A stretch of 64,000 bases of DNA from NCBI GenBank assembly GCA_965214935.1, contig CBDCCS010000022.1:739104-803103 (forward strand), in the 5' to 3' direction. Numbering within the stretch: the first letter of the stretch is position 1; each line of letters opens with the position of its first letter. The translations under genes and the position numbers were made by a program. Below the pieces are notes generated by a model. The model was not told where the DNA came from. It did not search any database and was given only the letters and a program-made list of their open reading frames with translations. Positions 5,877-21,948 of the stretch are shown here, piece after piece. The DNA comes from Candidatus Velthaea sp. Its GTDB lineage: Bacteria; Vulcanimicrobiota; Vulcanimicrobiia; Vulcanimicrobiales; Vulcanimicrobiaceae.

Positions 5877-6134
5877 TTTCACCAAAAGGCGGCTTACTTA
5901 ATTGTACAAGCGCTCGTATTGTGTGAACTGCATGTAACACCGCTTATACAATTGTCGAAATTGATGCGTCCGAATAGCAAGCCGTTCATGCGAACCGGTG
6001 GAGGCCCTTTGTAAGCATTTCGTATACAAAAGATACGTGCGGTCGTGCTTTACGAAACGCATCGTTCGTGCATCCGCGCTTGCTTCGCTTGGAGTCGCAA
6101 TTCTGGAAAAATCCGCATTCGGATGTTCGGCGCG

Positions 6135-7610
6135 ATGAACGTCGCCGAAGAACCGGCCGCTCACTCGCCGCAAACGGCTTTTCAGGAAATATACTTTTTT
6201 ATCGCGACCGCGAATGTCGCGCAGATTCATGACAAGATCGCCGAGCTAAAGCGCGATTCTAGCGCTGCTCTACTCTTGCATGCGGTGCTTGCGCAATACG
6301 ATGGTCGCGTCGACCGTGCGCTGCAACTATTTGAGAAAGCCCTTAGCGGCTGCGACGGCGGCGGTCGCGCGTACGTCATCGATCTCATCGCGCCGATTCT
6401 CGTTATGCGCAACGCGTGGGAGCGCTATGATGAGCTGCGCCGTTCGGTTGGATCGACGACCGAACTCGAAGGCTGCTTTCTGGCATTTGACGCCGTTTCG
6501 CTTGCGCGCAGCGGTTCAAAAGCAGCATCGATTTGGGCTGCTGCGCAGGCTGAAGCCGGCGTACACCCGGCAGCCAACGAGTTTTTGCGCGCTCGCATTC
6601 TGCAGCGCGTCGCGCATGCTGCGTACGAACGAGCCGACTTTGAAACGGCAATGGAACAAGCGCTCGAAAGCGCCGGCGGCTTCGAGGCCATATCCGCCGG
6701 TCGCTCGGCAGCCGCATCGTATTCGATCGTCTATAACGTGTTCCATGCCGTGAGCGGCGATCTTGAAAGTGCCGATGCTTATGCGCGGAAAATCGTTGAC
6801 ACCGCGCAGCTGTCCGGCGATCGGTCGTTTATGATGAGCGGCCTCGTCGCGCAGTATGAGATCGCCTCGGAACTCGGCGATCGGGCACGGGCCGAAGCGC
6901 TGCGCAAAGAGATCACTGCTTTCGCGTTACCCAAACAGTATCAAGAACGGTTTGCGCGCGGCATCGCCGATCTGCTCGTGCTCGCTGCCGCCGGCGACTT
7001 CTTCGCCTTTCGCGCAAATGTCGTATTGCTGCGTGACAGCGTTATCTGCGATCGGTCGATGATAGCGCTGACGTCGGCACTCCGATCCTTGGCCGAAGCA
7101 GCTCTCGACGAAGTTGAGGACGCCCGGCGTTCATCGCGGAATGCGCTGGGCCTTTGCACGATACGTGACGCCAACGAACCGGCGTATGCAAAGCGCTACC
7201 GCCGGCTAGCGCGCGCCATAGCCGCATGTACGTGTGCGATCATCGGCGATAACATTCGGGCGCGACGCGCGGTAACCAACGATGCAGATTGTCTGGCACT
7301 CTTGGCGGTGGCCGAAGGCGGCGACTTTCGCTCGGTGCTGCCGCGCATGCGCGGGTATGCATGCGCCGTCGCTGCGGCAGTTCGCGCGGTCGCCCAAACG
7401 CACGGCGGTTCTCCGCTGAGCGCCGCTGAGTTCGAGGTGCTGCGCCTCCTCGCCGCCGGATACTCGGCACCGCAAATCGCTGCAGGCTCGAAGCGCAGCG
7501 TTCACACCGTTCGCGCGCAAACACGCTCGATCATCGAGAAGTTCGGTGTGAGCGGTCGCGCCGCAGCCGTCGCTTTTGCACAACGCAGCGGGCTTTTAAG
7601 CCATATTTGA
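6135..7610 (+). CDS. Large LuxR-family regulator with helical (TPR-like) N-terminal region and C-terminal HTH
   Basis: C-terminal LSAAEFEVLRLLAAGYSAPQIA...SVHTVRAQTRSIIEKFGV is a LuxR HTH; N-terminal region has TPR-like helices (ARILQRVAHAAYERADFETAMEQALE); no Walker A seen. Start uncertain (6045/6123/6135). Confidence 0.85.
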   Translation: MNVAEEPAAHSPQTAFQEIYFFIATANVAQIHDKIAELKRDSSAALLLHAVLAQYDGRVDRALQLFEKALSGCDGGGRAYVIDLIAPILVMRNAWERYDELRRSVGSTTELEGCFLAFDAVSLARSGSKAASIWAAAQAEAGVHPAANEFLRARILQRVAHAAYERADFETAMEQALESAGGFEAISAGRSAAASYSIVYNVFHAVSGDLESADAYARKIVDTAQLSGDRSFMMSGLVAQYEIASELGDRARAEALRKEITAFALPKQYQERFARGIADLLVLAAAGDFFAFRANVVLLRDSVICDRSMIALTSALRSLAEAALDEVEDARRSSRNALGLCTIRDANEPAYAKRYRRLARAIAACTCAIIGDNIRARRAVTNDADCLALLAVAEGGDFRSVLPRMRGYACAVAAAVRAVAQTHGGSPLSAAEFEVLRLLAAGYSAPQIAAGSKRSVHTVRAQTRSIIEKFGVSGRAAAVAFAQRSGLLSHI

Positions 7611-7709
7611 TCGGCCTTTGCGGCGCTCGTAGTCAGATGTGACGCTCGCAGTTTTCTCCGGCGGACCTAAAGTAGGGGCACACCACACCGCCTGACGCCG
7701 GAGAGCACA

Positions 7710-7775
7710 ATGATCGACGCGATCCTCCAGTTGATCCACACGATAATACAAACCGTCCCGATCATTTCCGGCTGA
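7710..7775 (+). CDS. 21-aa hydrophobic peptide MIDAILQLIHTIIQTVPIISG, candidate signalling peptide
   Basis: GGAGAG RBS-like motif just upstream of ATG 7710; TGA 7773-7775 is 1 nt before the next ATG; below ORF-track size cutoff. Confidence 0.55.
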   Translation: MIDAILQLIHTIIQTVPIISG

Positions 7776-7776
7776 C

Positions 7777-7995
7777 ATGAGCGGGGACGACGTCGAACTC
7801 GACGTCGAGGCGCTCAGCGAATTCATCGCCGGCTGCTCGATCGCCGAAATTGCATCGATCTATCGCTGGTCCTTCGCGACAGCTGAAAACCAGCTGCGTC
7901 GAGCAATGATTCGCTACGGCTTTCGCCGCCAAGTGGTCTCACCGTCGCAACGCGATCGCTTCGTGCGAGTCGTGCGACGGATCCGGCGCACCTAA
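7777..7995 (+). CDS. Small 72-aa protein with HTH-like (sigma70 region 4-like) segment
   Basis: GCSIAEIASIYRWSFATAENQLRRAM resembles an HTH; basic C-terminus. Confidence 0.55.
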   Translation: MSGDDVELDVEALSEFIAGCSIAEIASIYRWSFATAENQLRRAMIRYGFRRQVVSPSQRDRFVRVVRRIRRT

Positions 7996-8119
7996 CGCAT
8001 CGTTTGGGTGCACCGCGGCTCCGCTGCTTATGGAGCCGCCGATCAAATGTCCCATCCGCCGACTTTGCGCGGGTGGGCAATACCACCACTCACTCAAGTA
8101 AAGAAAGTACGAGAGCATC

Positions 8120-8260
8120 ATGGATATCGAAGCAATCGCCGCCAACGAAGCCGCCACGACCGAGAATCCCGCCCACAACATCAGCACCAGCGAAGCGCGT
8201 CCCGACGGCATGGTCTTCGCTTGGAGCCACTACTGCATCGCCGTCGACTCGGTCAAATAA
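8120..8260 (+). CDS. Putative RiPP precursor peptide A1 (46 aa) MDIEAIAANEAATTENPAHNISTSEARPDGMVFAWSHYCIAVDSVK
   Basis: Manual translation; 33 of 44 residues identical to the paralog at 8396-8530, with synonymous codon changes in the conserved part; shared upstream TAAAGAAAGTACGAG. Confidence 0.88.
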   Translation: MDIEAIAANEAATTENPAHNISTSEARPDGMVFAWSHYCIAVDSVK

Positions 8261-8289
8261 CGCTCAGGCCGACGAACGGACGACACGAG

Positions 8290-8315
8290 TCGGCATGTCT
8301 TCATCCGCATGCCGA
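8290..8315 (+). promoter_or_regulatory. Stem-loop after precursor A1
   Basis: TCGGCATG-N10-CATGCCGA perfect 8-bp inverted repeat; no U-tract. Confidence 0.55.
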
Positions 8316-8350
8316 TCGAGCCTTAGAACCACCAACAACTGTCACACAAA

Positions 8351-8375
8351 CACACTTCACACTTCACACTTCACT
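8351..8375 (+). repeat. Tandem repeat (CACACTT)x3 in G-poor leader of precursor A2
   Basis: cacacttcacacttcacacttcact read directly. Confidence 0.8.
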
Positions 8376-8395
8376 AAAGAAAGTACGAGTTCAAC

Positions 8396-8530
8396 ATGGA
8401 TATCGATATGATTGCCGCTAACGAAGCCGTCGACAGCGAACACGCCGCCCACAACATCAGCAGCGGTGAAGCCCGCCCCGACGGCATGGTTTTCGCTTGG
8501 AGCCACTACGTTATCGCCGTCGACAAGTAA
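8396..8530 (+). CDS. Putative RiPP precursor peptide A2 (44 aa) MDIDMIAANEAVDSEHAAHNISSGEARPDGMVFAWSHYVIAVDK
   Basis: Manual translation; paralog of 8120-8260; lies directly upstream of the enzyme/exporter operon. Confidence 0.88.
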   Translation: MDIDMIAANEAVDSEHAAHNISSGEARPDGMVFAWSHYVIAVDK

Positions 8531-8548
8531 GACCGGCGCTTAGGGCTA

Positions 8549-8573
8549 CGGGCCGGGTTAACTCCCCGGCCCG
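8549..8573 (+). terminator. GC-rich stem-loop between precursors and enzyme genes (leaky terminator or mRNA stabiliser)
   Basis: CGGGCCGGG-TTAACTC-CCCGGCCCG perfect 9-bp stem, followed by an imperfect T-rich stretch (ctacgtttctgcttatttt). Confidence 0.65.
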
Positions 8574-8609
8574 CTACGTTTCTGCTTATTTTCTGGGAGC
8601 CTACTACCA

Positions 8610-9545
8610 ATGAGTGACATCTCGGTTCGTGCCGCGACGCTCCATTGCGAATCACTCGCTTGGGTCGTCGCCAAGCGCGAATACTTTCGGATCGATCGTT
8701 GCTTTGCCGGTGACGACGATATGGCATTTGCGCTTAAATGCTTTACCGAACTCGTTCTTTATGTCGACCGCTTGGGCGCTGCGGGCATCTCAACGTCTGA
8801 GCTACGTGTATTGCTCGACTTCATCGAAGCGCAATTGCCGGCTTTCGATTGGATCGGCGCGGTGCTTCATTCACCGGTTTCGGGCGCGTCGCTCGGCTAC
8901 GTTCTCTCCGTCTGTACGCGTTTCAATTTACGCCTGCCGTTCGATCGGGAAAAAGCCTGCCGGCTCTACGATTGCGGCTACATCGACAGCCTGGAGCGCG
9001 TGCCGTTTCGGGCCATCGAGATCGCGTTTGCGATGCTTCCCGCCGGACCGCCGCTGGCCGACATAAGTTCCGAATTGACGCCGCTTACGACGGCCGGCAC
9101 GAGCCGCCTCAATCCGCAAACGACGCGGATGGGCATGTATAGCGTAACGCACACGATTTTTTTTGCCGCCGAATTCGGCGCGCGGCCGCTGGAACCGCTG
9201 CTGGGCCGGCAGCTCGTCGAACGTCTCGAACGTTTTACGAAGCTCGGCGCAGCGCATGCCATGCGCGGCGACGATCTCGACTTGCTCGGCGAATGGCTTA
9301 TTTCGTGGAACATCCTCAAGCTGCCGGCGACGCGGCTTGCAACGGCGGCAATCGACGCACTAGTCGCCGGCCGGCGTGCCGACGGCTCGCGTTCCGCCTT
9401 TACCTTCGATGAAGAACGGCATGCCGCATTGCCGCCGGATGCCGCCCTTGCCTACGCCTTTAAACACTCGTATCACACCACACTCGTCAGCGGCATGTGC
9501 GGTGTTCTCTGGCAGGCTTCAGCAATGTTAGCGGTGGCGGTATGA
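8610..9545 (+). CDS. Uncharacterised helical protein, DUF6895-like; putative peptide-modifying enzyme
   Basis: Motifs YSVTHTIFF, DLDLLGEWL, RRADGS and YHTTLV recall DUF6895 / alpha-alpha toroid proteins (recalled from memory, needs HMM confirmation); GGGAG upstream. Confidence 0.6.
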   Translation: MSDISVRAATLHCESLAWVVAKREYFRIDRCFAGDDDMAFALKCFTELVLYVDRLGAAGISTSELRVLLDFIEAQLPAFDWIGAVLHSPVSGASLGYVLSVCTRFNLRLPFDREKACRLYDCGYIDSLERVPFRAIEIAFAMLPAGPPLADISSELTPLTTAGTSRLNPQTTRMGMYSVTHTIFFAAEFGARPLEPLLGRQLVERLERFTKLGAAHAMRGDDLDLLGEWLISWNILKLPATRLATAAIDALVAGRRADGSRSAFTFDEERHAALPPDAALAYAFKHSYHTTLVSGMCGVLWQASAMLAVAV

Positions 9546-10276
9546 ACGCAACGACGCTTCCGTCGTCAAGCCGCTGGCGCGAAATTAGCGACCTCATCAG
9601 TGCGGCCAACGCCTTGCCTCACGATACAAACGTCGACGCGACCGTTGCAACGTTGCACGCCGGCCTGCACGCGTTTGCCCCAACGCGTGATGAGTTGAGC
9701 GCGCTAACGTTCTGCAATGCTGAACTGCTTTACGATGTGCTCGCCGCCACCTATTTTCTCCGTCGCTTCACGCCGGCGTCGCCGCTCTGTCCGCGCTTTC
9801 ACTCGATCGTCGCCGCCGCAGCCGCGTCGCATTTGCAATCGGGTATCGAAGTTGCCGCTCACTATGCCGCGGCCTGCGAGACGTACTTTCGTGCACTGGC
9901 CTATCCGCACGGCACTTCGCCGTACAGCGCGATGCCGGTCGCGGCATTCAAACTTCCATTCTATTTAGTCCGGCCGCGCACGCTTAGCGACCGGGCCGAC
10001 TTTCGCCGCGCAATCTATGCCGAGCGCTTACGAGACCCGGCGGCCGGTCCGCTCGCCGATCTGCTCGCTTACGAGCTGATCGACACGATTCGCGCCGGCG
10101 ACGCGACGCAAACCGCGTGGCTGTTGATCGCTTGGACCGGCAACACCGCGCTCGAACGCAGCTTGCTTTCAGCCGGTCTCCGTTTGCTCGAACGCGATCC
10201 GCCCGATCGACATATCGTAACTCTCGTCCACGCGAATCTTCGCGCCCGCGCAAACGCTCGAAAGGAGCCGCAATGA
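9542..10276 (+). CDS. Uncharacterised 244-aa protein in the putative RiPP operon
   Basis: ATGA overlaps with both neighbours; Ala/Leu-rich helical composition; no recognisable motif. Confidence 0.7.
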   Translation: MNATTLPSSSRWREISDLISAANALPHDTNVDATVATLHAGLHAFAPTRDELSALTFCNAELLYDVLAATYFLRRFTPASPLCPRFHSIVAAAAASHLQSGIEVAAHYAAACETYFRALAYPHGTSPYSAMPVAAFKLPFYLVRPRTLSDRADFRRAIYAERLRDPAAGPLADLLAYELIDTIRAGDATQTAWLLIAWTGNTALERSLLSAGLRLLERDPPDRHIVTLVHANLRARANARKEPQ

Positions 10277-11157
10277 CTTCCCTCACTTCACTCCGCCTAA
10301 GTCCGAATTGGGCCAGCGCTGCCGCTTGGCTCGCAACGGTACCGGCCGCCACCACGGTCGACGCATCGGTGCGACGGCTTGTCGGGCTTGCTACGTGTGC
10401 CATTGCTTCCGACGATCCGGCAATCACGTCCGCTTGGCAGACGGCACATGCCGCTGCCGAAGAGCGCGCCGCCCGATCGCTCAACGATCGCTTCCCGGCG
10501 TGCGATCCCTATCTCGTCGTTTTCGCCGCAGCGGCGGCACTGGGAGCGCGCTTGCCCATCGACGGGTTTCGCAGCGACCTGGGTGCGTTAGCCGCACAGT
10601 TGCAAACGCGTTCGGCATCGGCACGCAGCCATCCGCGCGTCTTTGCCGCTGCAATGCTGCTGCGAGCGATGGGTTACGAGGTTTCCGCCGATCGGGCCGA
10701 ACTCAATGCCTGGGTACCGCCCAGTCTTGAGAAACTCTTCGATGCCGATGATGCGATGCTCGCCAACCTCGCTCATTGGCTCACGCTGCAACGGTGTTAC
10801 GACGATGCAGGCACCGCGATCGCGCGTATCGGCGATCCGGCAGACGTCGCCGACGCACTCGTGGCCATCGCCGTAGCTGAATGCCGAGCGTATCGCCTGA
10901 CGACGGCTGCCGATGTCGTACGTGCCGTGCAAGCCGCCGAACTGCCGTCCGAAGAACTTGCCGAGATACGGAATTTTCTCGTACTTCAACAGCGCGATGA
11001 CGGAGCATTCGGTTACCGTAATCCGTTCGTGAGCGCGACAACGCCCGACGATGCGACTCGCTTCCATTTGCCGATTTCACTGGCGACCTTGATTGCCTTC
11101 GCGGAATACCGCCGCCGGCGCCCGCTCGTTGCAAGCATCGTCGAGCGTTTGCAATGA
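10273..11157 (+). CDS. Uncharacterised 294-aa protein with a prenyltransferase/squalene-cyclase (QW-like) repeat
   Basis: AAGGAG RBS, ATGA overlaps at both ends; NFLVLQQRDDGAFG matches the LxxxQxxDGxF/W repeat of alpha-alpha toroid proteins. Confidence 0.65.
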   Translation: MTSLTSLRLSPNWASAAAWLATVPAATTVDASVRRLVGLATCAIASDDPAITSAWQTAHAAAEERAARSLNDRFPACDPYLVVFAAAAALGARLPIDGFRSDLGALAAQLQTRSASARSHPRVFAAAMLLRAMGYEVSADRAELNAWVPPSLEKLFDADDAMLANLAHWLTLQRCYDDAGTAIARIGDPADVADALVAIAVAECRAYRLTTAADVVRAVQAAELPSEELAEIRNFLVLQQRDDGAFGYRNPFVSATTPDDATRFHLPISLATLIAFAEYRRRRPLVASIVERLQ

Positions 11158-12932
11158 GCCGGCAATTAGCGACTCGCTTTCTGCGTCTGATTCGGCCGTG
11201 GTTGGCGCGGATCGCCGGCGGCGCGCTTGCATCGGCACTTTGCGGCGCGGTCTATATTTTAGTGCCGATCGCGCTACGCAACGTTATCGACGCACTCGCG
11301 CACGGTGACGGCGCGGCAAAGACGCGGGCGGTCGAAGCCGGCGTCGCCGTCATCGTCGCAATCGCGCTGGGTCAAGCCATCTGTTCCTACTTTCAATCGA
11401 TGCTACTGGCCAGCGTCAATGCGGGAATGACGCGCGAGTTGCGGCGCCGGCTCGTCGAGCATGTTCTGCGTCTGCCCTTACGGGTGAGCGGCGCGGAACG
11501 TGTCGGCGTCTTTCTCGGACGCTATAGCGCGGATATTCCGGTCATTCAAGCCTTGGCTACGACGACGATTCCATCGCTGCTGCGCAATGCAGCAATCGTC
11601 ATCGGGCTGATCGCCGTGCTCTTCGTCATGTCGTGGAAACTCACGATCGTAACGGCCGTCGTCATTACCGTCGTCGGCTTTGCGTCGCAGCATTTCGTGC
11701 GCCGCACCGCCGGTCTATCGCGGCCGCTGCAGACCGTGCGCAGCGAAGCCCTCGCGTTGCTGGGTGAAATGATCGCAAACGTCGCGCTGATCCGCGCGTT
11801 CGGACGCCAAGCAACGATCGTCGCACGCATGAACGAGCGGCTCGATCTCGCCTACGATCTTTCGTTGCGTGCAGCTCGCGTATCGGCGCTTTCGCGGTCC
11901 GTCGTGAACATCGTGGGCGGCTTGCTCATTTGCACGATCCTTTGGCTTGGTGCAAGCAACGCGCTCACAAGTCACGTTGAACTCGCGACGATGATGGGTT
12001 ATCTCACGGCGTCGGGAATGCTCGCGGCGGCGCTCGGTACCGTCGCCGGAAGCGCCGGTTCGGTCGCTACATCGGTCGCGTCACTCGAACGATATCTCGA
12101 TCTGCTCGACGTGGAAACCGATGTCGACGAACAGCTTGGACGAACGCCTCCGGTGCTCGGCGCGCTCAGCTTTCAGAACGTATCATTTCGCTACCGCGGC
12201 GATACCGCGGTATTGCACGATGTAACGCTCGACATCCCGGCCGGAACATCGCTTGCCATCGTCGGTCCAAGCGGCTCGGGTAAAAGTACGATCTTACAAC
12301 TCGTGCTTGCCGCGTTCACGGCGCAAAGCGGCCGGATCTTCCTCGACGGGCATCCGCTCGACACGATTGCGACGTCGTGGCTGCGCGAACGCATCGGCTA
12401 CGTTCCGCAAGAACCGTATGTTTTTCATGGAACTATCGCCGAAAATCTCCGCTTCGGTAAGCCGGACGCGTCGGTCGCCGAGCTGCACGAAGCCTGCCGC
12501 GTTGCACGCTTCGATCGGGTTGTCGCCCGCTGTGCGACCGGATTCGATGAAGTCGTCGGCGAGCGTGGCACGACGCTCTCGCGCGGCGAAGCGCAGCGGC
12601 TCGCAATCGCCCGCATGGTGCTGCGCGATCCGGCGATCGTGTTGCTCGACGAAGCAACGGCATCGCTCGATGCCGAGAACGAGCGGCTCGTACTCGAAGC
12701 GCTCGACGAGTCGTTACGCGGCCGAACCACAATTAGCGTTACGCACCGGCTCGAAAATGCAATGCGCTGCGATCTCGTCGCAATCTTGTACGAAGGCCGG
12801 CTCGTCGAACGCGGCAGTCCGGCGGACTTATTACGCCGCGGCGGGATGTTCGCGCGACTTATCGCTGCGACCACCTTTGCAAACGAGACGGCTCTTAGCC
12901 GCATTACGCCGCTCACCGTCAGCCTGCTTTAA
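11154..12932 (+). CDS. ABC exporter, fused permease/ATPase (MsbA/MdlB type), no C39 peptidase domain
   Basis: N-terminal TM domain; Walker A GPSGSGKS, Q-loop YVPQE, LSRGEAQR, Walker B LLDEATASLD. Confidence 0.93.
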   Translation: MSRQLATRFLRLIRPWLARIAGGALASALCGAVYILVPIALRNVIDALAHGDGAAKTRAVEAGVAVIVAIALGQAICSYFQSMLLASVNAGMTRELRRRLVEHVLRLPLRVSGAERVGVFLGRYSADIPVIQALATTTIPSLLRNAAIVIGLIAVLFVMSWKLTIVTAVVITVVGFASQHFVRRTAGLSRPLQTVRSEALALLGEMIANVALIRAFGRQATIVARMNERLDLAYDLSLRAARVSALSRSVVNIVGGLLICTILWLGASNALTSHVELATMMGYLTASGMLAAALGTVAGSAGSVATSVASLERYLDLLDVETDVDEQLGRTPPVLGALSFQNVSFRYRGDTAVLHDVTLDIPAGTSLAIVGPSGSGKSTILQLVLAAFTAQSGRIFLDGHPLDTIATSWLRERIGYVPQEPYVFHGTIAENLRFGKPDASVAELHEACRVARFDRVVARCATGFDEVVGERGTTLSRGEAQRLAIARMVLRDPAIVLLDEATASLDAENERLVLEALDESLRGRTTISVTHRLENAMRCDLVAILYEGRLVERGSPADLLRRGGMFARLIAATTFANETALSRITPLTVSLL

Positions 12933-12970: not shown

Positions 12971-13114
12971 ATGAACGACTTTCTCGAACGTCCGCTCCCA
13001 ACGCATCGGGGCGTAGCGACCCGGCTCCGGCACACCGACTGCCTACCCGATCGGCCACGACGCGGCTGCACGAACGCTGAGCTCGCAGAGACGCCGGCTG
13101 CTCATGCGCACTGA
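12971..13114 (+). CDS. Possible 47-aa small protein MNDFLERPLPTHRGVATRLRHTDCLPDRPRRGCTNAELAETPAAHAH
   Basis: AAGGAA RBS-like motif just before ATG 12971; stop overlaps start of next gene; no homolog recognised. Confidence 0.4.
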   Translation: MNDFLERPLPTHRGVATRLRHTDCLPDRPRRGCTNAELAETPAAHAH

Positions 13115-13817
13115 ACGCGAAACGTCCAATCGCCTCGAGCTGTGTGCGCTGACCAAAACGTATGGTGCGAAATACGCTATACGCGACGTGACGCTGACGC
13201 TCCACCCAGGCGTCACCGCGCTGCTCGGTCATAACGGAGCAGGCAAATCGACGCTCATGCAGATCCTCGCCACGACGGCGCGGCCGACATCGGGCGAACT
13301 GCGTTGGAACGGCGAAGCGATCGGCGCACGCACGATCGATCGGCTGCGCGCGCGACTCGGTTATGTACCGCAGCAATTTGCCGGCTATCCGCAACAGACC
13401 GTCGACGAGTTTCTTACCTATATCGCGCGCTTACGCGGGATTCGCGGCCGAGATGTGCGCAGCCGCGTTGCAAACTCGCTCGAAGCGTTTGCGTTGCTGC
13501 CGTTCGCTCGCACCCGGTTGAGCGCTTGCAGTCCGGGCACCTTGCAACGCGTCGGTATCGCGCAAGCGTTGCTGGCCGACCCGGCACTGCTTTTACTCGA
13601 CGAACCGACGGCCGGAGTCGACCCGGCAAATCGCGATGCGCTGCGCATGATGCTGCGCGAACTCGGACGGCACGCAATCGTGTTGATCTCGACCCATATC
13701 TTGTCCGATTTGACGGACGTTGCGACGCGCGCCGTTACTCTTCACGCAGGCAACGTCGCGTCTGACGAGCGTATCGACGTGCGCGCCGGCCGAAGCTGCG
13801 AAACGGCCGGCCGATGA
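13104..13817 (+). CDS. ABC-2 type transporter ATP-binding subunit
   Basis: Walker A GHNGAGKST, LGYVPQ, Walker B LLLDEPTAGVDP, ISTH switch. Confidence 0.92.
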   Translation: MRTERETSNRLELCALTKTYGAKYAIRDVTLTLHPGVTALLGHNGAGKSTLMQILATTARPTSGELRWNGEAIGARTIDRLRARLGYVPQQFAGYPQQTVDEFLTYIARLRGIRGRDVRSRVANSLEAFALLPFARTRLSACSPGTLQRVGIAQALLADPALLLLDEPTAGVDPANRDALRMMLRELGRHAIVLISTHILSDLTDVATRAVTLHAGNVASDERIDVRAGRSCETAGR

Positions 13818-15337
13818 TCTTCGCCACGCTCGTACGTGCCGAAATCGGAGCGCGCCTGCGGACGCCCGCCTTTCTTGCAGCCGCCGGAATCATGCTCGTC
13901 CTGGCCACGCTGCTGTTGCCGCTGCCGGGCGCACCATACACGACAATTACCTATGCAAATCGTCCGGGATTGCTCCTGGGCGGCTTTGCCGGCACGGCTT
14001 GCGGCACCGTGCTCACGATGCTCTTCGGCTTGCCCGCGCTCTTTGTTACCGGTGACTCGCTGGCACGCGACCGGCGCAACGGCTTCGGGCGGCTACTCGC
14101 AACGCTTCCGCTGTCAAACGTCGGCATCGTCCTAAGCCGGGCCGCTGCGGCGTTCGCTGCATCGGTCGGTGTCGCTGCCGCCGTCGGCATCCTGCTCGCG
14201 CTCGAAGGCAGTCTGCGCAGCGGAACGGCGTTTGACGCAGCGCAATTTTTCACTCACTATTTTCCGATCGTTGTCCCGGGTCTCGCCGTTTTTGCAGCGT
14301 TGGCAACGATCTTTGATGCGCTGTTGCCCGCACGCACCGGCTTGCGCGTCGCTGTTTGCCTCAGCGGCTGGATGGCGGTGCTGCTGCTGTCCGCGGTGCC
14401 GGCGATCGGCGCCTTCGATCCCGATGGCATTCGTCCGCTGCGCGACGAAGCGACGCGTGCATTCGCCGGCCTGAGCGGCGGGTGGTCGATCGGCTTTGTC
14501 AGCGTCGATCCGGCGGCGCAGCCGTTGCAGTGGTCCGGAGTTACGATCGATACGAGTTTTCTTGCGGCCCGCTTGACCTTACTTGCCGTTGCGGCGATCG
14601 CCGTCGCCGTCGCCGCCGCCGGTTTCGACCGCTTTGCGGCGTCCGCGCAGCGAGCCGGTAACAACCTCACCGCGCTCGGCGGCCGGATGTCGCTGCCGCG
14701 GCCGCCGGCGTTGATGCACTCTCTTCGCTACGGTCTCGGCGCGCGCATGATTGCCGACTTGCGCTATTGCGCCGGAGCGCAGCGGCGCCTGGCGTTTGTC
14801 GCTGCAGCGATCGCGGTGCTCGCCGCCGTCGTTTCGCCTGCATCGCTGCCGGCGGCGAAGATTACGATCGTGTTCGATGCCCTGTTCATCGCGCGGTTGT
14901 TCGGTATCGGCGATTTTGGCGAAGCGCGCGACCGGCTGCTACGAACGCTGCCCGGCTGTGCCGCGAACTGGACCCTCTGGAAGGCGCTCGACGTGTTCGC
15001 GACAACGACGCTACTCGCGCTCCCGGTTCTTGCCGTCGACCTTGCCCGTGAAGGTGCCGTCTCAGCCGCCGGTCTGGTTCTCACCGTCGGCTTTGTTGCG
15101 GCGCTGTGCGCGTTTTGTGCCCGACTATCGGGCGGTGCCGTGCTCGGAACGGTCACGACGTTCGGTTGGTGGTACTTGTGCATTCTCAACGCACCGCCGC
15201 CGGCGCTCGATCTCGCGGCGATCCGTGCACACCCGTCGATCGGGACGCTTGCCGCCGTAGCGCTAACGATCGCAATCCTCGCCGGGAGCGAGCGGTTTAT
15301 GCGCTTGAACCAAACTCGAAACCCAACGAGATCTTAG
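13814..15337 (+). CDS. ABC-2 type multi-pass permease (export or immunity)
   Basis: Many hydrophobic segments; RDRRNGFGRLLATLPLS ABC-2 permease-like loop; ATGA-coupled to the ATPase. Confidence 0.8.
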   Translation: MIFATLVRAEIGARLRTPAFLAAAGIMLVLATLLLPLPGAPYTTITYANRPGLLLGGFAGTACGTVLTMLFGLPALFVTGDSLARDRRNGFGRLLATLPLSNVGIVLSRAAAAFAASVGVAAAVGILLALEGSLRSGTAFDAAQFFTHYFPIVVPGLAVFAALATIFDALLPARTGLRVAVCLSGWMAVLLLSAVPAIGAFDPDGIRPLRDEATRAFAGLSGGWSIGFVSVDPAAQPLQWSGVTIDTSFLAARLTLLAVAAIAVAVAAAGFDRFAASAQRAGNNLTALGGRMSLPRPPALMHSLRYGLGARMIADLRYCAGAQRRLAFVAAAIAVLAAVVSPASLPAAKITIVFDALFIARLFGIGDFGEARDRLLRTLPGCAANWTLWKALDVFATTTLLALPVLAVDLAREGAVSAAGLVLTVGFVAALCAFCARLSGGAVLGTVTTFGWWYLCILNAPPPALDLAAIRAHPSIGTLAAVALTIAILAGSERFMRLNQTRNPTRS

Positions 15338-15367: not shown

Positions 15368-16003
15368 CTAGTTACTACCTGCCGCCGCGTTCACGACCGG
15401 CGTTGCGACGAGGTGTTCGGCGATGTACCACACGTGTGTTTCATTCGTCCGGAGCACTTGACTGACGAGCAGATCGTTTGTGCCTTCGTCGTCGCCGTCT
15501 TCGGTGGCTTTGATACCCTCGCGTACGCGCGCAATCGTCAGCTCGTGTGCGTCGAGCAGCCGCTGCAGCATCGCCGGAACGCTTTCAGCACCGTCGGGCG
15601 GCCGGGGAATATCGGTCAATTCGGCCACGTGACGCGGATCGCCGACCGCGATACCGCCGAGTTTCTGAATTCGCTCGGCCAAATCATCGGCAAGTTTGAG
15701 CTGTTCGGCTGCGTGTTTGTCGAGCAACAGATGAAGCTGATAGAACGTCGGCCCGCGCATGAGCCAGTGATGCTTTTTATACAGCGCGTAGAGGATCTGC
15801 GTATCGGCGAGAACGCCGTTCATCTGTTCGCAGCTTTTCGCGCGCTCGTCTTCTTCGAGCTTGATCGGGCGGTCGACTACGTCGCCGAAATGTTGTAGTT
15901 CGACGCCCATGCCGTCTTGCGCCGCTGCCGCTTGGCCGGCCGCAACCGACTTCCCGTTTGGCGTATGGTCGGCGCCTTCGCGGCGCGCCTTTGTCGTTGC
16001 CAT
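15368..16003 (-). CDS. dps: DNA starvation/stationary phase protection protein Dps
   Basis: HHWLMRGPTFYQLHLLLD and DDLAERIQKLGG Dps signatures; AAGGAG RBS before ATG 16003. Confidence 0.93.
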   Translation of the reverse strand: MATTKARREGADHTPNGKSVAAGQAAAAQDGMGVELQHFGDVVDRPIKLEEDERAKSCEQMNGVLADTQILYALYKKHHWLMRGPTFYQLHLLLDKHAAEQLKLADDLAERIQKLGGIAVGDPRHVAELTDIPRPPDGAESVPAMLQRLLDAHELTIARVREGIKATEDGDDEGTNDLLVSQVLRTNETHVWYIAEHLVATPVVNAAAGSN

Positions 16004-16109
16004 TAGCACTCCTTATATGACCTTTGCGTAACGCGTTTCTCCGGACATTGACGTTACCGTTCGCGGGTTGGTTCCGGGCGCGATGCCGGTGCGCCGCTTC
16101 TTCTCGCGT

Positions 16110-16640
16110 TTACGACATAATGAATCCGCCGTCGGACATCGATTGTTTGACCGGTGATCTACGCTGCATCGGTCGAGGCTAAAGAAGCGACGAGACCGGC
16201 GATGTCGTCGGCCGTTCCGGCGCGCCGCAACGGGATGCCGCGCACCCATTGCGCCATCAGCTCGCCCGGTGCATATTCTCAGAGCAACTTGCCCCAGGCT
16301 GCATCGTTGTAGGCTCACAGATCGGTGCCGATATTAGTAAGACAGATCGCATTGACGGTGATGCCTCACCGCGCCGGCTCTTTCGCCAAGCTTTGCGTGA
16401 GGCCCACGACGCCGAATTGCCTGGCTGCATCGTGCGCGTGTAGATGAAGCCTTGCCGCGCTTGTCCCACGCCGTAATGATGAGCCGGCCGCTTCTACGCG
16501 GTAGCAGAGGCCTTGTTGCGGCCTGGCAGCATAGGAAGACGCCCTTGGTAGTAACGGCCGTGACGGCGTCCCATTTATGTTCCGTCAAGTCGGCCAGCGG
16601 CTTGATGGTAACGATCGGTGCGCCGTTCTAGAATTGAGAC
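16110..16640 (-). pseudogene. Degraded SDR oxidoreductase remnant
   Basis: Stitched frames give ..DLTEHKWDAVTAVTTKGVFLCCQAA..GRLIITA/GQARQGFIYT/..FGVVGLTQSLAKE..*GITVNAIC..IPLRRAGTADDIAG..*ITGQTIDV/DGGFIMS*; several stops and frameshifts; no N-terminal GxxxGxG. Confidence 0.85.
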
Positions 16641-16642
16641 AA

Positions 16643-17614
16643 TCAGGCCGGCAGCGGCTCCGTATCGTCGACGAGTTTCGCGGCGGTAAACCGGTCGGTA
16701 ATGAGCACATCGATAAAGGCCCCGCGCAGCGCGCCGCGCAGCGCCGCAACTTTGCGTGCGCCGCCCGCCACCGCGACGACGCGCCGGACGTCACGCAATT
16801 GGTCGAGCGTTATTCCGATAACGCGCTCTTCGAGCGACGAGTGAATCGCGTGACCGTTCGCATTGAAGAAGTGCAGACAGATGTCGCCGACCGCGCCTAA
16901 TTTCGCGAGTTCCGTTAACTCTGCGGCGGTGAACACGTTACCGCTATCGGCTAAGAGTTTGGACGGCCCGACCGCGCCGACGCCGACGAGCGCCATCGTG
17001 GTACGCGCGAACTCATTCATCGTGTCGCGAACGAATGGATCGCTCAGCAGCACGTTCTTCGCTTTCGCCGACGTTGCCACGCCTTGCGTCGAAAGCAACA
17101 ACGGAGTTGCATGCGTCAGTTTCGCCAAGCGCACCGTGAGATTCGTCGCGTGCGCCTGCACGCTGGGATTTCCCATTCCGCCCAATATCTGCACGACTTT
17201 ATCGGCCGCGGGCGGCTTCAACGGATGGATGTTATCGACCATCCGCAGCAGCGATTCGCTCCAAGACGAGATACCGATGATTTCATCGCGCTCGAGCGTC
17301 GTCTCGACGTAATGCGCGGCGGCCTCGCCGATCCGCGCGAGAATCTGCTCTTCACGGTCCTCGCCGCAGTCGGCAACGACGACTTCGGACAGATTGAAGG
17401 TGCGCCGTAAGCGGTCTTCGAGTTCAGGATACGTGCCGCCCGGCACATTGACGGTGATCCGAACGATATCCTCATCGCGCGCTTTGCGAATGAGCCGCGA
17501 AACCGTCGTCTGCGAGATGTGAAGCTGGTCGGCAATGTCGGTCTGTTTCATTGCGTCGATATAATACATCCGCGCGATGCGGGCGCTCAGTCGAAGCTCG
17601 TGAATGCGTGCCAT
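16643..17614 (-). CDS. Sugar-binding transcriptional regulator (SorC/LsrR/DeoR-type)
   Basis: N-terminal HTH ARMYYIDAMKQTDIADQLHISQTTVSRL; sugar-binding domain GAVGDIC, VLITD. Confidence 0.93.
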   Translation of the reverse strand: MARIHELRLSARIARMYYIDAMKQTDIADQLHISQTTVSRLIRKARDEDIVRITVNVPGGTYPELEDRLRRTFNLSEVVVADCGEDREEQILARIGEAAAHYVETTLERDEIIGISSWSESLLRMVDNIHPLKPPAADKVVQILGGMGNPSVQAHATNLTVRLAKLTHATPLLLSTQGVATSAKAKNVLLSDPFVRDTMNEFARTTMALVGVGAVGPSKLLADSGNVFTAAELTELAKLGAVGDICLHFFNANGHAIHSSLEERVIGITLDQLRDVRRVVAVAGGARKVAALRGALRGAFIDVLITDRFTAAKLVDDTEPLPA

Positions 17615-17647
17615 ACCGTCGCTCCGGCATTCGTTAAGCGCCGCCGC

Positions 17648-18418
17648 TTACCAGCAAACGAAACCGCCGTCGACGAGCAGATCGATGCCGGTGCAAAACG
17701 ACGAGGCGTCGCTCAGCAGAAAGATCGCCGGCCCGACGAGCTCGTCGACGCTCGCCATCCGCCCCATCGGCGTATCCGCCTCGAATTGTTTGCGCGCGTC
17801 GGCGACTTCGGGCCGCGTGTTCATCGGCGTCGCGGTATAGCCGGGACTTATCGCGTTCACGCGAACGCCGCGAGCACACCATTCCATGGCGAGGCTCTTA
17901 CTAAGCTGTATGACGCCGGCTTTGGATGCGTTGTAATGACCTTGCAACAGACCGCGGTTGACGATCGATCCGGACATCGATGCAATGTTGACGATTGCAC
18001 CGTTTTTCCGCGGCAGCATGACGCGCGCTTCGGCCTGACAAGAGAGAAAAATACCGGTTAGATTTATATCGATTACTTTTTGCCACTGCTCTTGCGACAT
18101 GTCCTCGGCCGGCGCAGCGTTGGCAATACCCGCGCAGTTGACTGCAATTCCGAGCGGACCGAGCCGGCTTTCAACGGCTTCGACGGCGGCGGCAAGATCG
18201 GCACTTTGCGTGACGTCGCCGCCGAGTGACAGCGCATGCCTGCCGGCGGCTTCAATGCGCGACACCGTTTCAGCAATGCCCGGGCTGCTCGCAAGATCGA
18301 AGCAGCCGACATCGGCGCCGGCTTCGGCTAGACCGACCGCGAGGCGCTGGCCGATCCCGCTGCCGGCGCCGGTTACCAGCGCGATCCGATGCTCCAAATC
18401 GAAGAGCTTGAGCGTCAT
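17648..18418 (-). CDS. SDR oxidoreductase, probable polyol dehydrogenase
   Basis: TGAGSGIG, NCAG, YNASK catalytic motif, DGGFVCW end. Confidence 0.9.
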   Translation of the reverse strand: MTLKLFDLEHRIALVTGAGSGIGQRLAVGLAEAGADVGCFDLASSPGIAETVSRIEAAGRHALSLGGDVTQSADLAAAVEAVESRLGPLGIAVNCAGIANAAPAEDMSQEQWQKVIDINLTGIFLSCQAEARVMLPRKNGAIVNIASMSGSIVNRGLLQGHYNASKAGVIQLSKSLAMEWCARGVRVNAISPGYTATPMNTRPEVADARKQFEADTPMGRMASVDELVGPAIFLLSDASSFCTGIDLLVDGGFVCW

Positions 18419-19965
18419 GCCGTTGCAAGCTCCATCACCGCAACGTTGGTGGCGGCGCCGGCAGCAAGAATCCCCATCTGCCGGCCCCGGCTGAGCACCA
18501 TGACCCGATGCGACAACCCGAGCACCTCTTCGAGATCCGAACTCACGACGATCACCGCCATTCCCGCTTGTGACAAACCGGCGATCACTTCGTAGATCGC
18601 CGCTCGCGCACCGATATCGATACCGCGCGTCGGCTCATCGAGAATAAAAACTTTGGGCGAACGCGAAACCCACCGCGCGATCACGACTTTCTGCTGATTG
18701 CCGCCGGACAAATAGCGCATCAATTGCGGCGCCGAACCTTTGACGCCAAGCCGCGCAATGGCCGCCGTCACGAAGGCGCGGATGCGTTTGGGTACGACCC
18801 AGCCGCTCGGTGCGACACGATCGAAATTACCGAGCACGATATTTGCAGCAACGCTTTGATCGAGTAAAATGCCCTGCGCTTTGCGATCCTCGGGCACCAG
18901 CACCAATCCGGCGGCGATCGCGTCGCTCGGACCGGTTACTTTAATTGCTGCGCCGTTCACCCGAATCGTACCGGCGCTCAAGGCGTCTGCACCCGCGATC
19001 GCGCGTACCAACTCCGTTCGCCCGGCGCCCACGATGCCGGCGATGCCGAATACTTCACCCGCTCGCACAGCGAACGAGATCTCCCGGAAAGCACCGGTGG
19101 CCGATGCAAGTCCGTCGACTTCGAGAACGACCTCGTCACTGCTGCGCTGCAGATGGGGAAAGATGCGGTCGACACTCCGGCCGACCATTGCTTCGACGAT
19201 AATATTGACCGGCATTTGCGCGGTCGCGTGCTGCGCCACTAATTTGCCGTCGCGTAAGACCAGAACGCGATCTGCAATGCGGGCGATCTCATCGAGACGA
19301 TGGCTGATGTAAATAAACGAGACGCCCTCGCGGCGCAATTGATCGACCTGGGCGAAGAGCCGTTCGGTCTCGTCACCGCCCAGTGCGGCGGTTGGTTCAT
19401 CGAGAATGAGCAGTCGTGCGTTGAGCGTCAGCGCCTTGGCAATCTCGACTTGCTGTTGCGCCGCGACGCGTAAGGACCGCACGAGTTGCGTCGGCGGCAC
19501 ATTGAGTCCAAGCCGCTTCAATTGTTCGGCGGCGCGCCGATTCATAGCGGCGCGATCGACGCGGCCGCCGCGCATCGGCAGCCGGCCGACGAACACGTTT
19601 TCGGCTATTGACAGGTCCGGCAGTAGCCGCATCTCTTGATGGATCAATCCGATTCCGGCCGCGATTGCGCCACCCGGCGCGGCCGGCGCATAGGGCCGGC
19701 CGCGCCACGTCATCGTACCTTCCGTCGGTGCGAACAGTCCGGCGATCATCGATGAAACCGTCGATTTGCCGGCGCCGTTTTCGCCGAGCAGCGCTACGAC
19801 CTCACCCGGCGCGACATCAAAGCTGATGTTGTCGACGACGCGAATCGGTCCGAACAGCTTGCCGATGCCGCGCAGCGAGAGTCCCATGGCCGGGGCCTCT
19901 GCGCTCGCGGTCGCGGCATCCATCGATGAAGACACGCGCGCTCCCTCGTTAGGGATGTTTGGCAA
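18415..19965 (-). CDS. Sugar ABC transporter ATP-binding protein (RbsA/MglA-like, two NBDs)
   Basis: GENGAGKST, LDEPTAAL, LSGGNQQKV, DEPTRGIDIGA; start uncertain. Confidence 0.95.
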   Translation of the reverse strand: MPNIPNEGARVSSSMDAATASAEAPAMGLSLRGIGKLFGPIRVVDNISFDVAPGEVVALLGENGAGKSTVSSMIAGLFAPTEGTMTWRGRPYAPAAPGGAIAAGIGLIHQEMRLLPDLSIAENVFVGRLPMRGGRVDRAAMNRRAAEQLKRLGLNVPPTQLVRSLRVAAQQQVEIAKALTLNARLLILDEPTAALGGDETERLFAQVDQLRREGVSFIYISHRLDEIARIADRVLVLRDGKLVAQHATAQMPVNIIVEAMVGRSVDRIFPHLQRSSDEVVLEVDGLASATGAFREISFAVRAGEVFGIAGIVGAGRTELVRAIAGADALSAGTIRVNGAAIKVTGPSDAIAAGLVLVPEDRKAQGILLDQSVAANIVLGNFDRVAPSGWVVPKRIRAFVTAAIARLGVKGSAPQLMRYLSGGNQQKVVIARWVSRSPKVFILDEPTRGIDIGARAAIYEVIAGLSQAGMAVIVVSSDLEEVLGLSHRVMVLSRGRQMGILAAGAATNVAVMELATA

Positions 19966-20887
19966 TGTATTGGTCGACGTTGTCTTTGGTCGTAAGCATC
20001 GCTTTTTGCAATTGCTCTTTGGGCACCATTTGGTGATTCATGAGTTTCATCGCCGAATCGAGCGCAAGCCGGCCCATGAACTGCGTTTGCTGCGTCATCG
20101 TCGCGTCGACCGATCCGGCCTTGACGGCCTTGAGTCCGGCCACATCACCGTCAAAGCCGACGATGAGCACCTTGTGATCTAAGTTGGCAACCTTGACGGC
20201 TTGCGCGGCACCGAGCGCCATTGCATCGGCATGACCGAAAAAAACATTGATCGTGCTGTCGCGCTGCAGCATATCTTGGGCAACGGCGAAACCCTTGTCT
20301 TGGGCCCAATCGGCGGTTTGCGTCGCGACGATTTTGAGCCCGGGATTTTTGTCGAGCGCTTGTTGGAAGCCCTTGGTGCGATCGATCTCGGGCGTGGTAC
20401 CGAGTTGACCTTGCAACGCGCCGATTTTGGCTTTGCCCGCCGTTGTCTTTGCAACGTAATCGCCGAGCGTGCGGGCTGCCGCAACGCTATCGCTGGCGAT
20501 GAAGGTGTCGCCCGGTGCGTCCGGCGCATTGCGATCGACGGCGATCACCGGTATATGCGCCGCACGTGCAGCACGAACCGGCACGCCTGCAGCCGTCGCG
20601 CCGGCCGGAATGTAAATGAGCGCCGTAATACCGCGCGTAATGAGATCCTGAATTTGACTCACCTGCGTCGCGGCATCGCCCTTGGCATCGACGGTGACGA
20701 CGTCAACGCCCTTGGCCTGACCTTCGGCTTCGACAGACTGCTTGATTTCATTGAAGAAGTCGGCTTGTAAATTAGCGACCGCGAGACCGACGACGGGTTT
20801 TTTGGTCTGCGCCCAAGCACTCGACGTTGTACCGGAAAGCATCGTCAAGGCAAGTAGCGTTGCGGCAGCACTCTGAACTCTATGCAT
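19949..20887 (-). CDS. Sugar/polyol ABC transporter substrate-binding protein (RbsB-like)
   Basis: Signal peptide ending AWA; periplasmic binding protein motifs IPVIAVDR, IVGFDG; AAGGAG RBS. Confidence 0.93.
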   Translation of the reverse strand: MHRVQSAAATLLALTMLSGTTSSAWAQTKKPVVGLAVANLQADFFNEIKQSVEAEGQAKGVDVVTVDAKGDAATQVSQIQDLITRGITALIYIPAGATAAGVPVRAARAAHIPVIAVDRNAPDAPGDTFIASDSVAAARTLGDYVAKTTAGKAKIGALQGQLGTTPEIDRTKGFQQALDKNPGLKIVATQTADWAQDKGFAVAQDMLQRDSTINVFFGHADAMALGAAQAVKVANLDHKVLIVGFDGDVAGLKAVKAGSVDATMTQQTQFMGRLALDSAMKLMNHQMVPKEQLQKAMLTTKDNVDQYIAKHP

Positions 20888-20922
20888 GGAATCTCCTTGT
20901 AGTAGCGATGGTGATGCGTTGG

Positions 20923-21936
20923 TTACCGTTCGCGCCGGCGTAAGCTGTCGAATGCGACAGCGATCGCGATGACGAGGCCGACGATAATTTGTTGAATGAA
21001 TGGCGAGACGCCGACAAGATTGAGGCCGTTGTGCAGCACGCCGATAATCAGAACGCCGACGACCGTACCGCCGATTCCGCCGATCCCGCCGCTCAGACTC
21101 GCGCCGCCGATTACGACCGCGGCGATTGCGTCGAGTTCGTAGCCGAGCCCGGCGCTCGGTTGCGATGAGTCGAGGCGCGCGGCAAACACAACGCCGGCGA
21201 TGCCCGATAGTGCACCGGCGACGACGTACACCGCCGTCGTTAGGCTGTTGACGCGGATGCCGGCCAGTCGCGCGACTTCGCGGCTACCGCCGATTGCATA
21301 TAGATTGCGGCCGACGGCGCGATACTGCAAAATAACCCAGCTAATGAGTCCGATTATAATAAATAGCGCGACCGTTACGGACAAAAAGCCGAGATGGCGC
21401 TGCGTCGAGAGCGCCGTGAACCAGTCCGGATAACCGACGATCTGTTCGCCGTTGGTGATGATATTGGCCAAACCGCGCGCAATCGTCATGGTCGCGAGCG
21501 TCGCAATGAACGGCGGTAATTTTGCACGAGTGACGAGCAGCCCGTTCGCTAAACCGCATAAACCGCCGACGATCACGGCGATGCCCATCGAGAGCGGGAA
21601 GGGCAGGCCTTTGTCATTGGCAAGCCAGCCCATGACCATCATCGATAGCGCAAGCGTCGATCCGACCGAAAGATCGATACCGCCGATGATGATGACCGCG
21701 GTCATGCCCACGGCCATTATCCCGAGCACGGTCACCTGATCGATGACGTTAAGCCCGTTACGCAGTGATAAGAAGTACGGACTGAGCGAGGTAAAGACGA
21801 CGCACAGCAGCACGAGGCCGATGAGCGGACCCTGCGTGCCGCTGAGAACGCGCAGCCAGGCGGCACCAGGCCGAGCGGAGGAACCTTCTACCGCCGGGGC
21901 CGTGCTTGTTGCCATCGTTGCCTGCTCCTCTATCAT
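20923..21936 (-). CDS. Sugar ABC transporter permease (RbsC-like)
   Basis: GGIDLSVGS, PPFIATL, YELDAIAAVVIGGASLSGG. Confidence 0.95.
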   Translation of the reverse strand: MIEEQATMATSTAPAVEGSSARPGAAWLRVLSGTQGPLIGLVLLCVVFTSLSPYFLSLRNGLNVIDQVTVLGIMAVGMTAVIIIGGIDLSVGSTLALSMMVMGWLANDKGLPFPLSMGIAVIVGGLCGLANGLLVTRAKLPPFIATLATMTIARGLANIITNGEQIVGYPDWFTALSTQRHLGFLSVTVALFIIIGLISWVILQYRAVGRNLYAIGGSREVARLAGIRVNSLTTAVYVVAGALSGIAGVVFAARLDSSQPSAGLGYELDAIAAVVIGGASLSGGIGGIGGTVVGVLIIGVLHNGLNLVGVSPFIQQIIVGLVIAIAVAFDSLRRRER

Positions 21937-21948
21937 CGGTATGAAACG

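Follow-up and report, generated by a model that had tools for sequence, protein, structure and literature searches.

Analysis of a peptide locus in a Candidatus Velthaea genome identified two small genes, A1 and A2, upstream of genes for a DUF6895 protein (B), a protein of no known family (C) and a paralog of B (D). On balance, we favor the assignment of A1 and A2 to a stand-alone RiPP: with D as its helper, B would install D-amino acids in a hairpin of the peptide before export. This assignment has two parts: the A peptides are very probably substrates of B and D, and the chemistry, provided that they are, is reasonably likely to be epimerization. The locus would probably represent an undescribed pathway for a secreted modified peptide, found in many kinds of bacteria. 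Its features are collected in Table 1, with coordinates counted from the start of the window (the whole 64,000-nucleotide stretch that was analyzed).

Table 1. Features of the locus, with the basis of each assignment where one was recorded.
Feature	Coordinates	Strand	Description	Basis
LuxR-family regulator	6045..7610	+	upstream; paralogs elsewhere in genome	Pfam/NCBIfam
A1	8120..8260	+	putative precursor, 46 aa; predicted split into leader (~1–29), hairpin core (~G30–D43) and short tail	
A2	8396..8530	+	putative precursor, 44 aa; paralog of A1	
Stem-loop	8549..8573	+	9 pairs, then T-rich run; between A2 and B	
B	8610..9545	+	DUF6895, 311 aa	Pfam PF21836, E 1.3e-38
C	9542..10276	+	244 aa, all-helical, no known family; putative accessory role	
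D	10273..11157	+	294 aa; paralog of B lacking the conserved site	HHalign
ABC exporter	11154..12932	+	MsbA-type (membrane domain and ATPase), no C39 peptidase domain	Pfam/NCBIfam
ABC ATPase	13104..13817	+	of a two-gene ABC-2 system (Pfam/NCBIfam); putative self-protection or export	
ABC-2-type permease	13814..15337	+	partner of the preceding gene	weak Pfam; blastp homologs in related loci L135 and L137

The precursor genes and their operon

A1 and A2 are two real small genes. The first-pass annotation had described them as paralogs with 33 of 44 residues identical and with EARPDGMVFAWSHY and IAVD invariant, and both observations are correct. The differences cluster N-terminally, as had also been claimed (9/11 in residues 2–24, the others being C39/V39 and residue 44; Fisher p = 0.013). 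The synonymous changes are present (A26 GCG/GCC, R27 CGT/CGC, V32 GTC/GTT), and the proposal that they reflect real coding under selection is borne out by the synonymous excess, with pN/pS of 0.04/0.34 in residues 25–43 and 0.22/0.44 in residues 2–24, and with E25–D43 under purifying selection. A purine-rich stretch precedes both ATG codons, where 17/20 bases are alike, dropping to 37/80.

The tandem pair does not reflect mis-assembly, because contigs from two runs span it unbroken; a single contig of run X2 covers the entire interval 7700–11300, and one of run X1 covers 7700–10771. A strain variant in run X8 carries at least three changes within A1, and the three that are listed are all synonymous (the contig has nine differences, of which five are listed, two of these lying upstream of the ATG). 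Among the strain changes listed downstream, 14/20 are synonymous in B, 6/9 in C and 3/3 in D.

Neither peptide has a Pfam or NCBIfam match that would make it a fragment of a longer known protein family, which was one of the two cases against them named in the first-pass annotation. A homolog search of the 24–81-residue proteins among 5.8 billion returned only A1 and A2 themselves, and tblastn found no third copy in the genome. When a 14-row precursor alignment was searched against 401 genomes of the phylum, only A1 and A2 gave strong matches, followed by four weak ones (E 0.002–0.08). Metagenomes were also scanned for degenerate DNA encodings of DGMVFAW, and none of the matches listed, at least 115 in number, encodes a relative.

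ATGA overlaps join B to C, C to D and D to the exporter gene. The stem-loop between A2 and B is a probable stabilizer or attenuator that would favor precursor over enzyme message; folding of the whole 82-nt spacer is not significant (z = -1.48), and a terminator scan did not call a terminator at the stem-loop. Upstream of A1, three successive hairpins (7996–8119) fold better than shuffled sequences (z = -2.7) and could be a regulatory leader, or the terminator of an upstream 72-aa HTH-like ORF (7777–7995). The A/C-rich leader of A2 contains a short ACACTTC tandem repeat (8343–8375), and run X2 has one 7-base unit fewer, which indicates that strains differ in the length of this repeat, close to the upstream side of the ribosome-binding stretch. 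No sigma-70 promoter match was found in the stretch scanned, and no GC anomaly marks an island. On the opposite strand, 15368–23451 (-) holds ordinary, unrelated genes for a Dps ferritin-like protein, a sugar ABC transporter, an SDR, an FGGY kinase and a SorC-type regulator.

The cluster has two features of RiPP clusters, namely a short precursor beside a candidate maturase and an MsbA-type exporter gene coupled to D. A Pfam scan of 22 ORFs around the locus found no lasso, lanthipeptide, radical-SAM or protease genes. Five M16 peptidase matches lie elsewhere in the genome, and the closest of them is 27% identical and about 108 kb away. Genome-wide searches for lanthipeptide enzymes gave no match, and neither did their controls.

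The DUF6895 protein and its partner

B is the sole DUF6895 protein of the genome and matches PF21836 over model positions 4–287 of 289 with 133 bits (cut-off 23.8). A single-protein search of GTDB genomes with B returned nothing. Modeling with a 59-sequence alignment (pLDDT 95.3) predicted an (α/α)6 toroid, a fold that is also used by hydrolases, dehydratases and prenyltransferases. The best structural matches of the model are to oxidosqualene cyclase (Z 17.9) and a squalene-hopene-like cyclase (Z 17.0); sugar epimerases follow within about 1 Z of these top terpene cyclase matches, with cellobiose 2-epimerase 5zig_A at Z 16.7 (rmsd 3.8, 285 aligned) and N-acylglucosamine 2-epimerase at Z 15.3. 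Foldseek returned nothing at E 0.001 or better, and its top rows were all terpene cyclases.

Comparison of 150 representative DUF6895 homologs revealed a strongly conserved set of residues, all of which are present in B. Y177, T180 and H181 occur in 150/150 aligned rows each, H289 in 148/148, Y288 in 147/148, D224 in 150/152, E228 in 148/152, E47 in 131/132 and K43 in 113/129; the consensus around D224 reads R-x-x-x-W-D-L-x-G-E. In the model, these residues lie on alternate helices (37–57, 173–186, 223–235 and 288–310) that would line the barrel cavity. The DUF6895 alignment contains no conserved Cys, no conserved Ser nucleophile and no DxDD motif, with position 287 being Cys in 33/148 rows. 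By analogy with the systems discussed below, we propose that B is the catalytic maturase, acting as an epimerase.

D has no Pfam or NCBIfam match, and its relationship to B was not significant by blastp or by HHalign with only 5 D sequences. With 16 D sequences, HHalign aligned it to the B family over 237 columns (96.6%, E 5.1e-10). The positions of Y177, T180 and H181 are L, L and A in D, and both the Y-x-x-T-H and the Y-H motif are gone; judged by its sequence, D is catalytically incomplete as a DUF6895 member. Its profile matches the C-terminal half of 600–650-residue DUF6895 proteins (best E 8e-18), and a D-like domain occurs in 43/75 representatives of 400 residues or more. Such a domain accompanies B in 34/66 non-training loci (25 fused, 9 separate), and none was detected in the other 32/66. 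Since the site is lost and the domain is fused to B in many genomes, D is best read as a non-catalytic partner domain of B. A complex prediction of B, D and A2 scored 0.01, which is not evidence either way.

C has no Pfam or NCBIfam family, its Atlas matches fall below 0.9, and no significant sequence link to B was found. Its model is poor (pLDDT 52), with a best structural match of Z 8.1 and no clear fold. C shares its operon slot with genes in loci L135, L137, L169, L178 and L234, where the B–C–D order repeats, and its similarity to the C proteins of these clusters is weak (blastp E 0.02 against L135).

Precursors and DUF6895 genes in other genomes

DUF6895 scored above the cut-off in 14/401 sampled genomes of the phylum, in 17/348 genomes of the family (this genome counted in both) and in 0/3 of the same genus, which indicates a patchy distribution. 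A wider GTDB scan with an 8-sequence DUF6895 alignment confirmed 145 relatives, from which 80 loci were kept; these belong to Bacillota, Actinomycetota, Chloroflexota, Acidobacteriota, Proteobacteria and others. Position was the sole criterion for picking candidate precursors: the small ORF had to precede DUF6895 closely and to have a ribosome-binding-like site. With the two Vulcanimicrobiota loci excluded, the remaining 78 loci gave 53 such ORFs; about five of these appear to be wrong picks and were retained. The HMM built from this set ranks A2 first and A1 second among this genome's 44,303 small ORFs, at weak scores (E 0.7 and 0.92; third rank E 1.5).

A 16-column matrix of the core was built from 32 distinct cores in 52 loci (L225 dropped) and ranks the two peptides 8th and 10th. 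These ranks become 8th and 18th without AWE/AWD cores, 45th and 65th without AWS cores, and 121st and 294th without any AW cores. A near-identical AWE core is found in 23/52 loci, so those loci are not independent. Columns 32–33 are hydrophobic (fractions 0.91 and 0.75), columns 36–37 are polar or turn-type with no hydrophobic residue at 36, and columns 38–42 are hydrophobic again, with an aromatic residue at position 38 in 62%. From this pattern, we infer a common hydrophobic strand–turn–strand core, G-x-V-hydrophobic-A-W-S-x-Y-V, that would form a β-hairpin. An aromatic or His residue is present in 32/32 cores, and positions 30–42 are free of Ser, Thr and Cys in 5/32 distinct cores and 25/52 loci.

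These data bear on how the peptides had initially been divided. The view of A1 and A2 as precursor-type peptides agrees with their short length, variable leader and conserved C-terminal hydrophobic block beside a candidate maturase. RPD, near which the leader had been suggested to end, is not conserved as a motif for recognition or cleavage, since PD stands there in 1/32 related cores. The core had been placed from M31 onward, and its hydrophobic block is indeed conserved, with the family block starting slightly earlier, at about G30. Among the suggested targets (F, W, H, Y or the backbone), the backbone is the likeliest. W35 and H37 are not family-wide, W being found in 7/32 cores and His lying outside the four commonest residues at 37; Y38 is the best kept aromatic residue (Y in 16 and W in 4 of 32 cores). 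Cys39 had rightly been discounted as a shared target, as it is Val in A2 and 15/32 distinct cores have no Cys at 30–42.

The cores most similar to those of A1 and A2 belong to Bacillota clusters that also have the B–C–D order, in Caldalkalibacillus (L169), Pseudogracilibacillus (L178) and Streptococcus (L234); the L169 precursor core reads NPDGGVLAWSGYVLVW, compared with RPDGMVFAWSHYVIAV in the window. Two loci from the same family, L135 and L137, contain B, C and D, an exporter, an M16 peptidase gene (assigned by sequence reading in L135 and by Pfam in L137) and the ABC-2 pair (permease blastp E 4e-16 and 6e-17), and have more distant cores. An exporter gene lies downstream of D in L135, L137, L178 and L234. 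Several related loci have no adjacent exporter, and many consist of peptide, B and D only. The peptide–B–D module also occurs in two Dictyobacter genomes (L175 and L181), surrounded by genes that resemble those of gas vesicles.

Other arrangements were observed. Tandem precursors with a GGGYSQY-type core end lie near DUF6895 in the same-family loci L139 (8515–9799), L141 (8559–8735) and L144 (9650–9817), the last of which also carries a radical-SAM gene and a C39 exporter; to judge by these sequences, they are a separate uncharacterized RiPP type. Proteins of ~80 aa with an internal WSIIFSSKHY-type hairpin core and a long tail are encoded upstream of a lone DUF6895 gene in L142, L145, L146 and L166. 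In L138 (1687–8348), B-, C- and D-like genes converge on a gene with a squalene-hopene-cyclase domain, and no precursor was found upstream of DUF6895. In Nocardia, Streptomyces and Amycolatopsis, class I lanthipeptide genes are followed by DUF6895 genes (L183, L186, L189, L198, L206, L216, L217, L219, L224, L231 and L233; confirmed by Pfam for L186, L189 and L233, by sequence likeness for the others), and the lanthipeptides of these clusters are candidates for epimerization. Radical-SAM genes stand beside DUF6895 in L140, L144, L193 and L207.

Proposed maturation, alternatives and known systems

A pathway is proposed where B, probably in complex with D and C, would bind the A1 or A2 precursor. 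H181 and H289, together with Y177, Y288 and the conserved acids, would remove an α-proton and return one on the opposite face, giving D-amino acids at one or more hairpin residues with unchanged mass and no cofactor. As a guess, the most plausible place for this reaction is the W35-S36-H37-Y38 turn or a residue next to it. An unlinked protease, for example one of the five M16 enzymes, would then remove the leader near residue 29–30, the MsbA-type transporter would export a peptide of about 14–17 residues, and the ABC-2 pair may protect the producer. Epimerization is the simplest fit, because the toroid is cofactor-free with two His and two Tyr residues and the cores have no common reactive side chain. 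It is favored further because three other peptide classes use DUF6895 as an add-on and because DUF6895 has one reported activity; its presence in lanthipeptide and radical-SAM clusters fits a tailoring step that does not depend on side chains. Against this reading, the best fold matches to B are terpene cyclases rather than epimerases, and the precursor profile E-values are weak and the ranks fall without AW cores. The aromatic or His residue in every core leaves aromatic chemistry open. In a bolder form of the proposal, which we consider unlikely, B and D would be a double toroid of active enzyme and pseudo-enzyme, working iteratively as a cofactor-free, non-radical, multi-site epimerase to give a D-rich, gramicidin- or polytheonamide-like membrane agent, and the peptide–B–D module would be an undescribed RiPP class across many phyla, with this cluster (gene C, twin precursors) as one branch.

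It is possible, with a probability that we put well below that of epimerization, that B and D act on A1 and A2 by other chemistry, such as backbone macrocyclization or transpeptidation, cleavage of the leader by B/D themselves, or cross-linking or elimination in the turn. The hairpin would bring both core ends together, no protease gene was found in the cluster or in the compact peptide–B–D loci, and the toroid fold includes dehydratases, hydrolases and a lanthipeptide cyclase domain (8car_A), which the B model matches with Z 13.1. Such chemistry is harder to reconcile with the lack of a conserved Cys or Ser nucleophile in B and with the absence of Ser, Thr and Cys from many cores; moreover, epimerization is the sole DUF6895 activity reported, as cited in PMC13352647 and PMC13453073. 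As for self-cleavage, the M16 peptidases of two related clusters suggest that another enzyme cuts the leader.

Prenylation or another alkylation of Trp35 or Tyr38 by B/D, which would give a lipopeptide, is improbable. B resembles type II terpene cyclases and the β subunits of protein prenyltransferases in fold, these being its best matches, and in the QxxDG repeats that B and D both contain; B also has a weak sequence match to squalene-hopene cyclase (E 0.095), every core offers an aromatic or His residue, and a squalene-cyclase-domain gene adjoins DUF6895 genes in L138. The type II terpene cyclase acid motif is DxDD, and the zinc site of protein prenyltransferases is Asp-x-Cys…His. Neither DxDD nor Asp-x-Cys is conserved in DUF6895, in which only D224 is kept, with no Cys two residues past it. 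In addition, none of the 22 ORFs scanned at the locus encodes a prenyl-diphosphate synthase, and the cores are already very hydrophobic.

There is likewise a slim chance that the small proteins are intracellular partners of B–D (a regulator, inhibitor or structural subunit), neither processed nor exported, and that B–D has another substrate. This would account for the many related loci with peptide, B and D and no adjoining exporter or protease, and for the conserved helical-looking N-terminal part and the tails of 13–25 residues in related peptides. It sits poorly with a small gene that is tandemly duplicated with a variable leader and a conserved C-terminal block, with the translational coupling to an exporter in this operon, with the exporter gene that follows D in four related loci, and with the finding that lasso, lanthipeptide and radical-SAM peptide clusters all include DUF6895 genes. 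Finally, A1 and A2 might not be translated at all and be mere repeats, or be what is left of a longer gene. This would agree with the lack of any close homolog found outside this genome and is very improbable given the synonymous excess between the paralogs and in the strain variant, the intact starts and stops, the shared upstream stretch, and a position and pattern that match small ORFs upstream of DUF6895 elsewhere.

In the literature searched, no RiPP class with hairpin precursors and a stand-alone DUF6895 is described, although subscription journals and supplements outside that search may describe one. PF21836 and a Streptomyces core motif had no literature match, DUF6895 appeared in reference lists only, and a plasmid search gave two weak DUF6895 matches. 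On these sources, the family already has a reported activity, and the stand-alone class appears to be undescribed and widespread. D-amino acids give protease-resistant peptides and membrane-active folds, and multi-site peptide epimerases are mostly oxygen-sensitive radical-SAM enzymes. If epimerization is correct, a cofactor-free toroid epimerase that tolerates different hydrophobic cores would be of use in peptide engineering, and its products would escape routine mass-based screening because their mass is unchanged. The window locus offers two natural substrate variants with minimal tails, its own exporter and a compact module.

Outside peptide chemistry, sugar epimerases of the (α/α)6 fold have His acid/base residues inside the barrel (PMC5726027). 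B shares this barrel with the AGE superfamily (cellobiose 2-epimerase, N-acylglucosamine 2-epimerase and YihS; Z 14–17), and both have Tyr next to His close to the C-terminal end, as CYH in L249 and SYH in B, which may be equivalent. AGE enzymes act on sugars, and identity to B is 7–10%. B was rejected as an AGE member by sequence, as PF07221 matched neither B nor anything else in the genome, and when the B profile was compared with one AGE-family protein by HHalign, the probability was 1%.

RiPP epimerases described previously include radical-SAM PoyD/OspD and YydG (EpeE), the α/β-hydrolase BotH, the metallophosphatase-like MslH and linaridin SinL (PMC9811515). The proposed outcome is the same, namely D-residues in a ribosomal peptide, but their folds differ from that of B, and the window cluster has no radical-SAM, hydrolase or phosphatase gene. 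The precursors have hydrophobic cores, as polytheonamides and epipeptides do. A radical-SAM epimerase RiPP (proteusin or epipeptide) was rejected because none of the 22 ORFs scanned has a radical-SAM match, and a lanthipeptide because the cluster encodes no dehydratase, kinase/lyase or LanC-type cyclase and A2 has no Cys.

In lasso precursors, position -2 of the leader is Thr, and an Asp or Glu occupies position 7–9 of the core. A lasso peptide was rejected here: A2 has no Thr, neither Asp nor Glu lies 7–9 residues after G30, no Asn-synthetase-like cyclase or transglutaminase-like peptidase is encoded among the 22 ORFs, and PF13471 was not found in the genome (88.7% complete). The closest known system is linked to this class: one protein of the same Pfam family, DUF6895, is called a lasso peptide epimerase in a paper title (Shi et al., ACS Catal. 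2026, 16:1757, doi 10.1021/acscatal.5c08590, as cited in PMC13352647 and PMC13453073). A lasso-type cluster in Streptomyces shaanxiensis (L240, 3418–7414), comprising a precursor, an Asn_synthase-domain protein, DUF6895 and an FAD monooxygenase, is possibly like the system cited there, and its DUF6895 protein shares E47, Y177, T180, H181, D224, E228 and H289 with B. In contrast to the lasso system, the window cluster has no lasso cyclase, leader peptidase or recognition element, its precursor is a hydrophobic strand–turn–strand, and its DUF6895 protein is the sole recognizable maturase, paired with the inactive-looking D and with C.
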